Source: Candidatus Omnitrophota bacterium | GTDB taxonomy: Bacteria > Omnitrophota > Gorgyraeia > Duberdicusellales > 4484-171 | Assembly (NCBI GenBank): GCA_037146775.1 | Contig: JBAWWL010000002.1 | Coordinates: forward strand, 262,554 to 326,553 | DNA: 64,000 bases | Direction: 5' to 3' | Part shown: one piece after another, positions 40,789-63,214 of the stretch | Numbering within the stretch: position 1 is the first letter of the stretch | How the letters are laid out: the number at the start of each line of letters is the position of its first letter | The notes under the pieces: generated by a model | Seen by the model: only the letters and a program-made list of their open reading frames with translations | Told to the model about the DNA's origin: nothing | The model's database searches: none | Program-made: the position numbers and the translations under genes

Positions 40789-41151
40789 GTGGAAGAGAAG
40801 ATAAAAACTTTTAAGGATCTAAGAATCTGGCAAAAGGCGATGGAGATCGTTAAAGATATTTACCAGGTAACCAACTCTTTTCCAAAAGAAGAGCTTTATG
40901 GTTTAACATCCCAGATGCGAAGATGTGCGGTGTCTCTTGCTTCGAATATTGCCGAGGGTTTTAAGAGATATCACAATAAAGAGTACAAACAATTTCTACA
41001 TATTATGTTAGGATCTGCGGCTGAATTAGAAACGCAGCTACTAATATCAGAAGAACTTAGATACATTAACAAGGAAGAAACGGAAAAAATATGTGAGAAA
41101 TTAGAGCATCTTTCGAGGATGACCACAGTTCTTATCCGTAAGCTTAAGTAA
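40789..41151 (+). CDS. four-helix-bundle protein (23S rRNA intervening-sequence protein family)
   Basis: 120 aa; DLRIWQKAMEIVKDIYQVT...SQMRRCAVSLASNIAEGF is the family signature; GTG start with a GAAGGA RBS. Confidence 0.65.
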   Translation: MEEKIKTFKDLRIWQKAMEIVKDIYQVTNSFPKEELYGLTSQMRRCAVSLASNIAEGFKRYHNKEYKQFLHIMLGSAAELETQLLISEELRYINKEETEKICEKLEHLSRMTTVLIRKLK

Positions 41152-43263: not shown

Positions 43264-43399
43264 TTAGGTTGATATGTTGATAGGTTAATAGGTTGTCAGG
43301 TTATTATGTTGATAAGTTAATAGGCGACAAGGGATGGGAAGGGAAAAAGCAAAAATCAAAACGAAAAAGGTAAAACGAATTAAAGTAGAAAGTTAAAAA
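43264..43399. repeat. intergenic repeat block (eight ATAGGTTG-type 8-mers then a purine-rich tract)
   Basis: ATAGGTTG ATATGTTG ATAGGTTA ATAGGTTG TCAGGTTA TTATGTTG ATAAGTTA ATAGGCGA. Confidence 0.7.
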
Positions 43400-43431
43400 G
43401 TTTTTTGAATACTCCTGACTCGGCTGAATAT

Positions 43432-43493
43432 GCGGAAAATTCTAATGAGACTTGCCCGATTTTATCGGGCTTAGGCGAATTATAATTTTCCGC
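43432..43493 (+). ncRNA. nested stem-loop; candidate structured RNA within a 945-bp ORF-free gap
   Basis: Outer stem GCGGAAAATT/AATTTTCCGC (43432-43441 and 43484-43493) enclosing GCCCGAT-ttt-ATCGGGC (43454-43470). Confidence 0.3.
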
Positions 43494-43680
43494 AACCTCG
43501 TCGGAGTAATCTTTGGCGCATCAATCTCTCGGTTGTTCCTGGAATGTTCTGCTGGGTTACCCCACAGGGTGCCCTGGTGAGTTGAGGGCCGAGGATCTAT
43601 GCGCGTCGATTAAAATAAATCTGCGAGAAGCTGCTAAATAGGGAACTAATTTCCTACCAGAAGAGTCTAATTTGTATAGT

Positions 43681-43990
43681 ACATAGTCGTGAGTATTATA
43701 TAGGTTAATAGGTTATTATGTTGATATGTTGATAGGCTATTTAATAAGGGGCTATTAGAAAAGTGGTAAAAAAGGGACAGGAAGGGGTGGAAAGGGTTAG
43801 GAAGGGGAGGGAAGATTAACGAATTAAATAATTAAAGAATTAACGGATTAAGATATTAACGAACTAACGAATTAAGAGATTAACGAATGAACTGATTAAG
43901 ATAAAAAAGGAAAAAATTAAATATCAAAAACATTCCGTTAATCGTTGAACGGTGGCGATGCTCGTTTCGGTTGCGTTAATCGTCAATCGG
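43681..43990. repeat. intergenic repeat block (AGTAnnn, ATAGGTTG, GGAAGGG and 12 ATTAAnnn units, then a partial GC core)
   Basis: 8-nt period ATTAA+NNN repeated 12 times at about 43807-43900; GGCGATGCTCGTTTCGGTTGCGTT at about 43954. Confidence 0.7.
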
Positions 43991-44145
43991 CTTTATTTTT
44001 TATGATATTTATGACTCAACCGTTATACGCGGGACGATACGAGCCGCGCCTGCCTCGCCGGCAAGGCGGGTAACCGCTCAACGCATAACGAGGTATTTTT
44101 CATAAACACTTGTCTATCAATCGATTATATAAAATATTACTTAAA

Positions 44146-44165
44146 TAACAACTTTTAAGTTGTTA
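44146..44165 (+). promoter_or_regulatory. perfect palindrome TAACAACTT-tt-AAGTTGTTA, candidate operator
   Basis: 9-bp arms with a 2-bp spacer, 5 bp upstream of the predicted -35 of the AbiEii-like gene. Confidence 0.5.
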
Positions 44166-44170
44166 AATAC

Positions 44171-44199
44171 TTGACAATACAACTTATATAGTGTAAATT
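44171..44199 (+). promoter_or_regulatory. sigma-70-like promoter (TTGACA-17-TAAATT) for the AbiEii-like/HTH pair
   Basis: TTGACA at 44171-44176 and TAAATT at 44194-44199; ATG at 44209. Confidence 0.45.
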
Positions 44200-44208
44200 A
44201 TAAGTGCT

Positions 44209-44931
44209 ATGGAAGGCAAGAGAATGGTGCAATATCAGCAAAGTGTATTAAAAGCCTTATCTAATAAGGTAAACGATTTTTATCTTGTCGGAGGTACGGC
44301 GCTTAGCCTTTTTTATTTTCAACATAGACTATCCGTAGATTTGGATTTTTTTACGCCTAAATTATCGTTTGCGAGAGTAAAAGAGATAGTTGATTACCTG
44401 CAAAAGGCTTTGGAATGTAAAGAAATCAAACTAATAGCGCAGAACCTTGAAAAAGATAAGACAAAAATGCTTATCTATAATATTAATTTTTCTACCGCCG
44501 ATATATTGAAAATTGATTTTGTAGAAGATGTTTTTGAACTAATAACAGAAGTTAAGACTGTTGACGGTATTAGAGTGTTATCATTGGAAGACATCTACAT
44601 CAGAAAGATATATGCGGTTTGCGGTAATATCGAAATAGAGGATGATGTCGGGCGCAAAAATTTTATTGGCGGGAGAGTCGCCGCGAAGGATTTCTACGAT
44701 CTTTATTTTCTTTCTCATGTTTTTATGCCGTTGTCTGGTTTTGCGCAAAAACATTGCGACGCGGCAACAAAAGAGTCTTTAATTCGCTGGTTTAAAATGT
44801 ATGACAGGATGACCATGGTTGACGGAATTTTACAAATCGATACGGAAAAAAATGTAAATGCTAAAAGTATCGAGAAACATTTTGCTAAAGAAGTTGGAAA
44901 GATTATCGAGCAGCAAATAGGTGAAATATGA
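44209..44931 (+). CDS. nucleotidyltransferase, AbiEii/AbiGii toxin-like
   Basis: FYLVGGTALSLFYFQHRLSVDLDFF matches the GGTAL...S.D.DF minimal nucleotidyltransferase signature of the AbiEii family. Confidence 0.55.
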   Translation: MEGKRMVQYQQSVLKALSNKVNDFYLVGGTALSLFYFQHRLSVDLDFFTPKLSFARVKEIVDYLQKALECKEIKLIAQNLEKDKTKMLIYNINFSTADILKIDFVEDVFELITEVKTVDGIRVLSLEDIYIRKIYAVCGNIEIEDDVGRKNFIGGRVAAKDFYDLYFLSHVFMPLSGFAQKHCDAATKESLIRWFKMYDRMTMVDGILQIDTEKNVNAKSIEKHFAKEVGKIIEQQIGEI

Positions 44932-45449
44932 AAAACAATTGGTTGTGGGACATGAAAGTAAACGAAGCAGAAGTAAAGGCAGCACTTAAAGACCCCACAC
45001 ATAAAGATTTTTTACGTTTTGCGGCTTTACTCCTTGCGCGGAATAATGAACCAAAACAGGTATTCAGTGAATATCTTGATCCGCTTGTCTTCTGTAAATA
45101 TTGGCAAGGTATTAAACGCCGGATGCGTGAAGATAAATGGGTTCAGGGAAGGATAATCTTTTGGCAGGCGATATATGACAGTTTAAAGGAGAAGTATCGC
45201 GCTAGAGGAATAATCTTTAAAAAAGAGCCTGTACCTGAAAAAAACCATCTGTGCAAAGAAGTTGGTGACAAGGTCAGCGCTTTACGCCACAGCCAGCATT
45301 TATCACAAAAAGGATTAGCAGAAAAAATGGGTATTTCCCAACAGTTAATTTCACGTATTGAAAAAGGAAGAGAGAACGTTTCTTTATCTACTTTGGATAA
45401 TGTTGCGCGTGCCTTGGGGAAGAAAGTAGAAATTAGCATGAACGTTTAG
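44928..45449 (+). CDS. XRE-family helix-turn-helix protein (putative cognate partner/antitoxin)
   Basis: C-terminal LSQKGLAEKMGISQQLISRIEKGRENVSLSTLDNVARALG is an HTH_3 motif; ATGA start/stop overlap with the upstream gene. Confidence 0.6.
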   Translation: MKNNWLWDMKVNEAEVKAALKDPTHKDFLRFAALLLARNNEPKQVFSEYLDPLVFCKYWQGIKRRMREDKWVQGRIIFWQAIYDSLKEKYRARGIIFKKEPVPEKNHLCKEVGDKVSALRHSQHLSQKGLAEKMGISQQLISRIEKGRENVSLSTLDNVARALGKKVEISMNV

Positions 45450-54934: not shown

Positions 54935-55120
54935 AGAGTAGTATATAGTATAGAGTACATAGTAGGGGGAAAAATTAACGAATTAAATAATTAAAGAATT
55001 AACGGATTAAAGAAGAAAGGGGCAGGAAGGAAAAAGAAAAGTAAAAAGTTAAAAGGCAAAAGTAAAAAAGTATAAATTAAGATAGGGAAAAATTAAAAGT
55101 AAAAAACAAGGAGGATTATT
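54935..55120. repeat. intergenic repeat block (AGTAnnn, ATTAAnnn, purine-rich AAAAGTn)
   Basis: gagtagagagtagtatatagtatagagtacatagta...attaacgaattaaataattaaagaattaacggattaaag... Confidence 0.65.
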
Positions 55121-60165: not shown

Positions 60166-60465
60166 TATGTAGTATATAGTGGGGAGTAAGGATTAACGGA
60201 TTAAAGAATTAAATGATTAACTAATTAAGAAATTAACGCATTAAATAATTAACGAGCTAACGGATTAAGAAATTAACTAATTAAAGAATTATTTGGGGAA
60301 AGAATATAGGTTGATAGGTTAGTATGTTGATAGGTTAGTAGGCAGGAAGGGTCAGAAAAATAAAATATTAAAAATTAAAATAAAAATAAGGGGTAGAAAA
60401 GGACAGAAAGGGAAGAGAAGGGAAAAAGTTAAAAGTCAAAAGTAAAAAACTGAAAAATAAACGCT
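60166..60465. repeat. intergenic repeat block (AGTAnnn, ATTAAnnn, GGTTGATAGGTTAGTA, GGA-rich, AAAAGTn)
   Basis: AAAAGTT AAAAGTC AAAAGTA AAAAACT GAAAAAT at 60421-60455. Confidence 0.65.
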
Positions 60466-62052: not shown

Positions 62053-62186
62053 AAGGGATTAAAGAATTAACGAATTAACTAATTAAAGAATTATTTGGGG
62101 AAAGAATATAGGTTGATAGGTTGGCATGTTGATAGGTTAGTAGGCTAAAGAATTAACTGATTAATGGATTAACCGATTAACGAATT
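62053..62186. repeat. intergenic repeat block (ATTAAnnn, GGTTGATAGGTT modules)
   Basis: attaaagaattaacgaattaactaattaaagaattatttggggaaagaatataggttgataggttggcatgttgataggttagtaggc is nearly identical to 60268-60340. Confidence 0.7.
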
Positions 62187-62795: not shown

Positions 62796-63214
62796 TGTAT
62801 GTAGTATATAGTCGTGAGTATTGAGTATATGGAGAAAGTAGGTAGTATTGAGTACTGAGTATATAGGTGGGTTAGAAATGGGTAAAAAGGTTGGTATGTT
62901 GATAGGCTAAAGAATTAACGGATTAAAAAATTAAATCATTAAATAATTAACGAATTAACTGATTAATGAATTAACGCATTAAAGAATTAACTAATTATTG
63001 GGGGGAAAGGATATAGGTTGATAGGTTGGCATGTTGATAGGTTAGTAGGCAGGAAGGGATGAGACATTAACGGATTAAAAAATTAAATAATTAACGGATT
63101 ATTTGGGGAAAGGGGAGTAGGGGAAAGAGAAAAGTAAAAAGTTAAAAATAAAAAGGCAAAAATAGAAATCAAAATAGAGAAATATCAAAAATTAAAAAGA
63201 GAAGGAGGCAGATT
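62796..63214. repeat. intergenic repeat block (AGTAnnn, ATTAAnnn x2, GGTTGATAGGTT x2, purine-rich)
   Basis: Third copy of ...GGAAAGgATATAGGTTGATAGGTTGGCATGTTGATAGGTTAGTAGGCAGGAAGGG..., also at 60300-60350 and 62100-62150. Confidence 0.7.

Follow-up and report, generated by a model that had tools for sequence, protein, structure and literature searches.

What kind of system is encoded by a gene for an AbiEii-like nucleotidyltransferase that stands in front of the gene for its helix-turn-helix (HTH) partner? This question is raised by a two-gene locus at positions 44146-45449 of a 64,000-nucleotide stretch of DNA (the window) from a Candidatus Omnitrophota bacterium (contig JBAWWL010000002.1). 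We conclude that its two open reading frames, ORF1 and ORF2, probably form an autonomous, self-repressed, toxin-first two-gene toxin-antitoxin or abortive-infection module of the DUF1814 (AbiEii/MenT) family. The original prediction for this DNA, made from its letters alone, had described an AbiEii-like gene followed by an XRE-type HTH gene, with a palindrome and a promoter before them, and each of these is found in the position given for it. The parts of the locus are the following.

44146-44165: operator O1, a perfect palindrome read from the sequence, TAACAACTT-tt-AAGTTGTTA, with the core ACAAC-N6-GTTGT; it stops 5 nt before the -35 hexamer
44171-44176, + strand: -35 hexamer TTGACA, from the promoter scan
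44177-44196: operator O2, ATACAAC-TTATAT-AGTGTAA, from the sequence and the family consensus; it occupies the whole 17-nt spacer and runs into the -10 hexamer
44194-44199, + strand: -10 hexamer TAAATT, from the promoter scan; the ATG of ORF1 lies 9 nt beyond its end
44209-44931, + strand: ORF1, AbiEii/DUF1814/MenT-family nucleotidyltransferase of 240 amino acids, putative toxin
44919-44924, + strand: Shine-Dalgarno-like AGGTGA for ORF2, within the 3' end of ORF1
44928-44931, + strand: ATGA start/stop overlap of ORF1 and ORF2, read from the sequence
44928-45449, + strand: ORF2, two-domain partner of 173 amino acids, putative repressor and antitoxin
44928-45212, + strand: N-terminal domain (N-domain) of ORF2, residues 1-95, a five-helix model with an invariant WLWD peptide before the helices
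45213-45260, + strand: variable, flexible linker of ORF2, residues 96-111, from pairwise identity and the predicted local distance difference test (pLDDT)
45261-45437, + strand: XRE/434-type HTH of ORF2, residues 112-170, from HTH_3, with recognition helix SQQLISRIE

The first step in answering the question is the identity of ORF1. A hidden Markov model (HMM) search, named in the original prediction as the possible refutation of its call, was clearly positive: ORF1 matches PF08843 (AbiEii) with 69.7 bits against a cut-off of 22.5 (E 4.8e-19), and it also matches 19 PADLOC AbiEii models. When 34 homologs were aligned, G28-G29, R40, S42, D44, D46, K133, K160-D161 and D164 proved to be invariant. 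Under the motif definitions of PMC3985639 (I, hGG/S; II, R..DhD; III, K...; IV, +DxxD), motif I is G28-G29, motif II is R40/D44/D46, the motif III lysine is K133 and motif IV is K160-D161-F-Y-D164; the motif III arginine at +7 is absent from ORF1, with N140 in its place. The toxicity of AbiEii is abolished by mutating motifs I, II, III (at the lysine) and IV (PMC3985639), and the invariant residues of ORF1 include the equivalents of D80, K189 and D211 of MenT3 (PMC7450476). In the loop R40-L-S42-V-D44-L-D46 a serine stands two residues before the first catalytic aspartate, with an arginine nearby; its counterparts in the phospho-acceptor loops of known toxins are R76-S78-D80 of MenT3 (PMC11375011) and R63-T65-D67 of AbiEii (PMC3985639; bioRxiv 10.64898/2026.01.19.700257). 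Judged by its sequence, ORF1 is a DUF1814-family nucleotidyltransferase with intact catalytic motifs, and its toxicity is putative, drawn from family membership and the invariance of the residues on which toxicity depends in its relatives.

A profile search of the PDB with ORF1 gave a weak match, only to the Helicobacter pylori chains 4O8S and 4OK0, which were deposited as 'Putative'; 4O8S is JHP933, a structural neighbour of MenT3 (PMC7450476). The same search with the single ORF1 sequence returned spurious matches only and was discarded. One gene caller chose an alternative start for ORF1, the ATG at 44224 (internal Met6, 235 amino acids), and the alignment of homologs favours 44209 over it.

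The second step concerns ORF2, in which two conserved domains are joined by a variable linker: mean pairwise identity is 53% in the N-domain and 51% in the HTH and falls to 20% in the linker, where pLDDT drops below 50 at residues 100-104. The C-terminal domain is readily classified. Residues 112-170 match HTH_3 with 48.7 bits (cut-off 23), the best PDB sequence match of the C-terminus is HigA (6af3_B, E 6.9e-6), and Foldseek relates the HTH to ClgR, HipB and the restriction-modification C proteins C.BclI, C.AhdI and C.Esp1396I, in keeping with a match of ORF2 to the PADLOC Control_protein model (E 1.7e-10). The HTH is also 33% identical to the DNA-binding domain of the phage 434 repressor (the sequence aligned is identical to PDB 1R63), and Q138-Q139 align with Q28-Q29, the residues through which the 434 repressor reads its ACAA half-sites. 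Recognition helix and half-site alike hardly vary between loci, so that covariation between helix and operator yielded no usable signal.

The N-domain, by contrast with the HTH, has no counterpart in the collections that we searched. Pfam, NCBIfam and PADLOC searches gave no match for residues 1-95, and ORF2 is not AbiEi, as there is no match to the Pfam families AbiEi_1-4 at E <= 1 and none to the PADLOC AbiEi models. An AlphaFold2 model (58 homologs) has five helices, with a pLDDT of 88.9 and a predicted template modelling score of 0.81. Foldseek with this model gave a best E of 9.4 against the PDB, in a library copy that was not checked for the presence of AbiEi (6Y8Q), and no match in BFVD; a Foldseek search with full-length ORF2 was no more useful, as it returned HTH matches only and nothing for the N-domain. 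The domain carries the invariant WLWD peptide and further invariant Trp, Arg and Asp residues, and it is strongly basic, with an isoelectric point (pI) of 9.7 here and a family median of 10.06. The family is small. A protein of a Candidatus Omnitrophota metagenome-assembled genome is 100% identical to ORF2. ORF2 has 136 homologs at E <= 0.001, mostly in Omnitrophota and with 47-72% identity among the 120 matches listed, and an exhaustive HMMER search with the N-domain recovered only 93 cluster representatives in 1.84 billion proteins. In these the domain is nearly always N-terminal; most consist of N-domain and HTH, and some of the N-domain alone (86-98 amino acids). The partner had been predicted to have a non-canonical N-terminal domain, and the searches bear this out: judged by sequence and model, the N-domain of ORF2 is a fold or family without detected relatives and the new element of the module.

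The third step is the control region. The TTGACA and TAAATT hexamers with their 17-nt spacer form a sigma-70-like promoter that scores 10/12 in the promoter scan; promoter-like sites in the window are no commoner than in shuffles. Perfect 9-bp inverted repeats with a spacer of at most 4 nt occur 3 times in the window and 2.7 +/- 2.3 times in Markov simulations (window G+C content 38%). We therefore rejected the rarity of the palindrome as stand-alone evidence, its frequency being at chance level, and credit it instead because it is conserved across homologous loci. Elsewhere in the window, the sole other perfect repeat with arms of at least 9 bp is a 10+10 bp palindrome without spacer at 1791-1810. 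The half-site ACAACTT occurs 8 times in the 64 kb, 3 times within 40 bp at the module, and it was by the third of these copies, at 44179-44185, that the second operator, O2, was recognised.

When 46 loci are aligned on the -35 hexamer, their consensus reads ...ttttACAActTAtAagTTGTA... TTGACA AtACAACtTaTATGTTGTATA.TT, in which AtACAACtTaTATGTTGTATA is the family consensus of O2. The family operators are two palindromes of the form (T)ACAAC-N6-GTTGT(A): O1 lies a few bases before the -35 hexamer, and O2 exactly fills the spacer, its right arm overlapping the -10 hexamer as GTTG-TATAMT. TTGACA itself is almost invariant and forms the peak of information content in the alignment. Allowing at most one mismatch, we count 69 copies of ACAAC-N6-GTTGT in promoter windows that total 3,036 nt, against 7 in the 329,335 nt outside them, an enrichment of about 1000-fold in related loci, and at least two operator sites are present in 30 of the 46 loci. 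In the window O1 is perfect, whereas O2 combines a consensus left arm with a degenerate right arm, in a variant (TATAGTGTAT) that recurs in loci L016, L020, L021, L024 and L057; 31 bp, or three helical turns, separate the centres of O1 and O2. A perfect 9-bp palindrome adjoining TTGACA-17-TAAATT had been noticed in the single sequence, and an equivalent arrangement is thus kept in some 46 homologous loci.

The spacing of the start codons adds a further regularity. In 43 of the 46 loci, 35-38 nt separate the ATG of ORF1 from the first T of the -35 hexamer, so that the -10 hexamer ends 6-9 nt before it, and a Shine-Dalgarno-like motif precedes ORF1 in 1 of 48 loci but ORF2 in 39 of 48. From this geometry and the absent Shine-Dalgarno motif of ORF1 we predict that the toxin mRNA is leaderless, with transcription probably starting at or just before 44209. 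The ATGA overlap suggests that the start of ORF2 is coupled to the translation of ORF1, and ORF2 is predicted to start from this overlap and a Shine-Dalgarno motif of its own.

The fourth step is to establish whether the two genes belong together. A scan anchored on ORF2, with one genome per species, gave 63 loci, about 55 of them full-length; most are in Omnitrophota, with single bins labelled Margulisiibacteriota, Elusimicrobiota, Hydrogenedentes and Nitrospirae. In about 50 of the 55 the gene directly before ORF2, on the same strand, is an AbiEii homolog, and the 4-nt ATGA overlap is kept in about 40 of 52 genome loci. A scan in the other direction, anchored on close homologs of ORF1 (at least 44% identity) that have room downstream in metagenomes of the JGI (n = 35), found an ORF2 homolog downstream in 35/35. 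The toxin-first order and the overlap, both reported before for this one locus, are therefore traits of the family and not accidents of the locus. Flanking genes, in contrast, are rarely shared: only 33 of 1275 locus pairs have flank homologs in common, and because the flanking genes are unrelated between loci the cassette appears to move on its own. A few ORFs of about 120-130 amino acids turn up repeatedly beside several related loci. Searches of 72,556 plasmid records and 2.9 million viral contigs gave no full-length relative of ORF2, only matches at the HTH level; the nearest plasmid matches are HigA-like genes adjoining RelE/ParE toxins.

Natural variants take the module apart. In three orphan loci (L011, L019 and L025) ORF2 is present without a toxin gene; all three keep O1 before ORF2, and L011 and L019 keep the -35 hexamer and O2 too. 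Decayed AbiEii genes are seen in L030, as a remnant beside an intact ORF2, in L048, as a remnant beside a long fused ORF2-type gene, and in L150-L153, where AbiEii is truncated to 154 amino acids, has lost motifs III-IV and stands beside a stand-alone N-domain. No orphan toxin, that is, an ORF1 homolog without a partner, was seen among the loci scanned.

Stand-alone N-domains complete the picture from the other side. P0331 (90 amino acids) directly follows an intact AbiEii-like gene of 240 amino acids with an ATGA overlap (L147:77-1068). P0333 (86 amino acids) likewise shares an ATGA overlap with the gene before it, here a fragment truncated by the contig end (L149:3-499); by eye this fragment has an AbiEii-like C-terminus resembling the L147 toxin, but it gave no tblastn match to ORF1. 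P0329 (90 amino acids) has a 13-nt overlap with the truncated AbiEii-like gene of L150-L153, on contigs of 72-74 kb (L150:2049-2773). All three proteins end at real stop codons, and at L147, L149 and L150-L153 no HTH is detectable anywhere in the locus and no ACAAC-N6-GTTGT precedes the toxin. A further N-domain protein, P0284 (98 amino acids, L148), follows a gene without detectable similarity to ORF1.

Taken together, the orphan ORF2 genes and the HTH-less variants indicate that the operator is tied to the HTH and the N-domain to the toxin. The predicted autoregulation of the operon by ORF2, first proposed on the strength of the palindrome, accordingly gains strong comparative support, since the operator is conserved, is kept with orphan ORF2 and is absent where the HTH is missing. 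The HTH-less pairs are also our main argument about the N-domain, as they argue that it is the toxin-directed part of ORF2 and not a dimerisation module only.

The N-domain and HTH also head proteins of 755-1207 amino acids with Mrr_cat, TPR and PIN-TPR-GreABC domains in five genomes. The five long fused genes, which still lie after AbiEii and still behind ACAAC-N6-GTTGT operators, are these.

L048:1304-4888, long fused ORF2-type gene
L049:3998-6265, long fused ORF2-type gene
L051:4001-7624, long fused ORF2-type gene
L052:4001-7213, long fused ORF2-type gene
L057:4001-7573, long fused ORF2-type gene

As far as domain composition goes, the Mrr_cat/TPR/PIN fusions show a link between the module and conflict systems, and show that the pair of N-domain and HTH can be the regulatory head of other effectors.

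With these parts the working of the module can be pictured as follows. A near-consensus sigma-70 promoter, strong if unrepressed, would produce a bicistronic mRNA that, to judge from the promoter geometry, is leaderless. By analogy with MenT1, MenT3, MenT4 and the AbiEii of Streptococcus agalactiae, ORF1 would add nucleotides to the 3'-CCA ends of tRNA, and translation would stop; nucleotide addition to tRNA 3' ends is documented for the family of ORF1 (PMC7450476; PMC10435456; bioRxiv 10.64898/2026.01.19.700257). Translation of ORF2 through the ATGA overlap and its own Shine-Dalgarno motif would probably supply more partner than toxin and so offset the toxin-first order. Dimers of ORF2 would then bind O1 and O2 through the 434/HigA-like HTH, a step for which there is comparative support, occlude the -35 and -10 hexamers and turn the promoter off; given the three-turn spacing, binding to the two operators is probably cooperative. 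The N-domain would neutralise ORF1 by direct binding, possibly with induced auto-phosphorylation of Ser42, which is suggested because this residue occupies the position of S78 in MenT3 and T65 in AbiEii. Loss of ORF2, by proteolysis or by a phage-induced shut-off of host expression, may be the trigger that both frees and derepresses the toxin.

Several observations weigh against the toxin-antitoxin module as we have drawn it. An excess of partner may depend on leaderless translation being weak in Omnitrophota. The N-domain (pI 9.7) and the homologs of ORF1 (median pI 8.8) lack the charge complementarity that is often seen between an antitoxin and its toxin. If ORF2 acted as a transcriptional repressor alone, one would expect the co-occurrence of the genes, the orphan partners and the decayed toxins just as much, and the Mrr_cat-TPR-PIN fusions suit a regulator or adaptor no less than an antitoxin. 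In the window itself, the right arm of O2 and the -10 hexamer deviate from the family consensus. A mirror-tree comparison of ORF1 and ORF2 (r = 0.80) failed as a means of discriminating between the domains, as the correlation of the N-domain with ORF1 (0.67) is no stronger than that of the HTH (0.75).

A bolder version of the same reading, which we put forward tentatively and would not back at even odds, makes the N-domain with its WLWD peptide an undescribed and structurally novel antidote/adaptor domain that would neutralise DUF1814 toxins, binding at the active site and inducing auto-phosphorylation of Ser42. Such a domain would be modular, occurring alone, with a 434-like HTH, or with HTH-Mrr_cat-TPR-PIN effectors, and it would define a defence family centred on Omnitrophota.

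The alternative that best survives the evidence, although we consider it unlikely, is that ORF2 is a C-protein-like transcriptional controller, which keeps the gene of a dangerous nucleotidyltransferase off or times its expression and never contacts the toxin; the N-domain would then merely di- or tetramerise the HTH for cooperative binding to O1 and O2, or sense a derepressing signal. The likeness of the HTH to C proteins, seen with both PADLOC and Foldseek, speaks in its favour, as do the two palindromic operators three helical turns apart with their leaderless geometry. Paired operators with such a geometry recall C-boxes. A basic N-domain that does not complement the charge of ORF1 is in line with it too, and loss of the repressor alone would also be lethal, so that the asymmetry between orphan partners and the missing orphan toxins is equally well explained. 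It accounts poorly, however, for the N-domains that persist after AbiEii-like genes without HTH and without operator, and that in two cases out of three still overlap them by ATGA, since a mere dimerisation module for the HTH would have no reason to remain without it. Nor would it lead one to expect that the N-domain is conserved like the HTH, with invariant Trp, Arg and Asp residues, and is almost restricted to the ORF1-ORF2 gene context.

Considerably less credible is a form of target protection (type IV-like) or nucleic-acid binding, in which the basic N-domain binds the substrate, such as the acceptor ends of tRNA, or reverses the modification. With its pI of about 10 the domain could suit such a task, and antidotes that do not bind their toxins exist: MenA4 reportedly does not interact with MenT4, which is unphosphorylated (bioRxiv 10.64898/2026.01.19.700257). 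The N-domain is nevertheless small (95 amino acids) and all-helical and has no detectable signature of an RNA-binding or enzymatic family, and the invariant Ser42 and Arg40 of ORF1 suggest that a route of phospho-regulation is available. That ORF1 is instead a benign small-molecule or RNA-modifying nucleotidyltransferase under an ordinary XRE repressor strikes us as the least probable reading of all, for although PF08843 membership is no proof of toxicity, the neighbouring genes are of housekeeping type and no phage or plasmid copy was found in the collections searched, the residues required for AbiEii and MenT3 toxicity are all invariant, the cassette sits in unrelated neighbourhoods in several phyla like mobile toxin-antitoxin modules, toxin genes decay while partners stay and never the reverse, some versions are fused to Mrr_cat-TPR-PIN conflict-system domains, and a near-consensus promoter held under tight control by two operators is what harmful genes typically have.

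The surroundings of the module in the window are chromosomal, with genes for a 23S rRNA intervening-sequence protein of the four-helix-bundle type, a CpsB-like phosphatase, a C1 peptidase and a TolC/MacA/MacB-type efflux operon; the first of these, which is bAvd-like, lies at 40789-41151. No tRNA genes or Rfam families were detected near the module or elsewhere in the window, and there is no second copy of ORF1 or ORF2 in the 64 kb. The 945 nt before the module (43264-44208) contain no convincing ORF and no Rfam match; they are taken up by the periodic repeats described below and, at about 44030-44075, by a segment rich in G+C.

Two kinds of repeat surround the cassette. Many intergenic regions of the window carry AT-rich arrays with a strict 8-nt period and units such as TAGGTTGA, ATTAACGA and TAACGAAT; those recorded, all outside the module, are these.

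43265-43324, 8-nt-period array
43815-43904, 8-nt-period array
54973-55014, 8-nt-period array
60192-60291, 8-nt-period array
62058-62093, 8-nt-period array
62908-62997, 8-nt-period array

The second is a motif, TAGTCGTGAGTAT, with 11 matches in the window at up to two mismatches, where 0.94 are expected. The + strand carries nine of them, among which are the five exact copies (40021, 43684, 45475, 57490 and 62809). Two copies flank the AbiEii-HTH cassette, and at least those close to the module are intergenic. Direct repeats of the form TAGTA(c/t)(a/g)TAGTCGTGAGTATT at 43677 and 45468 were considered as insertion scars of the cassette and rejected, as they are part of this genome-wide intergenic motif. 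TAGTCGTGAGTAT could be a repetitive extragenic palindrome (REP)-like element or a transcription signal.

How the module relates to what has been described can be summarised gene by gene: the toxin family and the HTH type are known, while, on sequence comparison, the partner domain joined to the HTH and the dual-operator, probably leaderless promoter are new. The regulatory design is unusually clean, with a near-consensus promoter, two conserved 434-like operators, a toxin cistron that is predicted to be leaderless and a partner cistron driven by its Shine-Dalgarno motif. Rule sets that demand an AbiEi partner presumably overlook the pair, so that its share of the defence or toxin-antitoxin repertoire of uncultivated Omnitrophota may be under-counted, and if the N-domain is indeed an antidote/adaptor, an Omnitrophota-centred family of defence modules has probably been missed by current defence-system finders. 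That toxin-antitoxin systems exchange partners will not surprise specialists; even so, a new domain and its natural dissection make the mechanism testable. In the searchable literature we found no paper on an AbiEii and XRE-HTH pair, on DUF6922 (see below) or on such a module in Omnitrophota.

With the 434 repressor and Cro and with C proteins, the partner shares an HTH fold whose recognition helix begins with QQ, palindrome arms of the ACAA...TTGT type and two adjacent operators that overlap the promoter. The consensus of the 434 operator is ACAA-N6-TTGT, so that the ACAA and TTGT cores, 6 bp apart in 434, are 8 bp apart here. ORF2 differs further in its extra N-domain of 95 amino acids, and no restriction-modification or phage genes adjoin it. 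The reverse-order type II systems HigBA and MqsRA resemble the module in overall plan, with the toxin first and an antitoxin that deals with the toxin through its N-terminal part and represses the operon through a C-terminal XRE HTH, roles that are putative for ORF2, and HigA (6af3_B) is the closest PDB sequence to the C-terminus of ORF2. Their toxins, however, are RelE/ParE-fold or MqsR RNases and not nucleotidyltransferases, and the N-terminal parts of their antitoxins are unrelated to that of ORF2.

The closest relatives of the toxin itself are found in pairs of DUF6922 (PF21956) and AbiEii, whose toxins form the sister clade of ORF1 (27-38% identity). In this clade (L107-L143) an overlapping DUF6922 gene of about 95 amino acids lies upstream (for example L110:97-387, L111:2181-2477 and L139:2172-2477), and DUF6922 is here probably an uncharacterised antitoxin family. 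Like the N-domain of ORF2 it is small, similar in size and helical-looking, with an N-terminal LFWD where ORF2 has WLWD; unlike ORF2, it is encoded in the canonical order and has no HTH. Neither the N-domain of the window nor 10 distant family members match PF21956, even at E <= 10, and hhalign alignments of the N-domain with DUF6922 are colinear but non-significant (probability 0.1-0.9%, E 0.06-0.5). Homology between the two thus finds no support, either in Pfam or in the hhalign probabilities, which are below 1%.

AbiE of Lactococcus lactis and S. agalactiae shares with the module a PF08843/DUF1814 toxin that carries motifs I, II and IV together with the lysine of motif III, a bicistronic operon whose genes overlap by 4 nt (PMC3985639; PMC7319586), and a two-domain partner of which one part binds DNA and the other is antitoxic, a role that is putative for ORF2. 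Both also have two inverted-repeat sites at the promoter, which in AbiE serve negative autoregulation (PMC3985639; PMC7319586). The differences are as many. In AbiE the antitoxin precedes the toxin, while here the toxin precedes its partner; AbiEi is a COG5340 protein with an N-terminal winged HTH, while ORF2 has a C-terminal XRE HTH and an N-domain without detectable similarity to the C-terminal domain of AbiEi; the inverted repeats of AbiE measure 23 bp, against ACAAC-N6-GTTGT operators of 16-20 bp; and the abiE mRNA has a 26-nt leader, against a predicted leaderless one. By gene content, then, the module is not AbiE in the strict sense, as its partner is not AbiEi and its order is reversed.

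The reversed order was first described as non-canonical, which holds with respect to AbiE but not for DUF1814 toxins in general, among which it has precedent in the group of RlegTA, SanaTA and SdenTA. These DUF1814 pairs, obtained by shotgun cloning, are named toxin-antitoxin, and RlegA is explicitly described as downstream of RlegT, with SanaTA and SdenTA grouped with RlegTA (bioRxiv 10.64898/2026.01.19.700257). SanaTA protects Escherichia coli against T7 lacking gp4.5, and RlegTA shrinks T7 plaques (bioRxiv 10.64898/2026.01.19.700257; PMC3985639). Their antitoxins, unlike ORF2, are COG5340/AbiEi-like or distant kin, with neither an XRE HTH nor this N-domain. The proposal of a type IV candidate likewise stands as regards membership in the DUF1814 toxin-antitoxin family, but the label is dated, since AbiE is now placed in type VII (bioRxiv 10.64898/2026.01.19.700257).

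The last comparison is with MenAT1 and MenAT3 of Mycobacterium tuberculosis, which belong to type VII. As in ORF1, their DUF1814 toxins carry the R-x-S-x-D-x-D loop with a serine at the position of MenT3 S78; unlike here, the antitoxin gene comes first, and MenA1 is a 7.4-kDa helix protein while MenA3 is AbiEi-like. In MenAT1 and MenAT3, unrelated antitoxin folds trigger the same auto-phosphorylation mechanism in the toxin (PMC11375011). Unrelated antitoxins of DUF1814 toxins thus appear to converge on induced auto-phosphorylation, and a third unrelated partner domain facing the invariant R-x-S-x-D-x-D loop, as we propose for the N-domain of ORF2, would probe how general this mechanism is.

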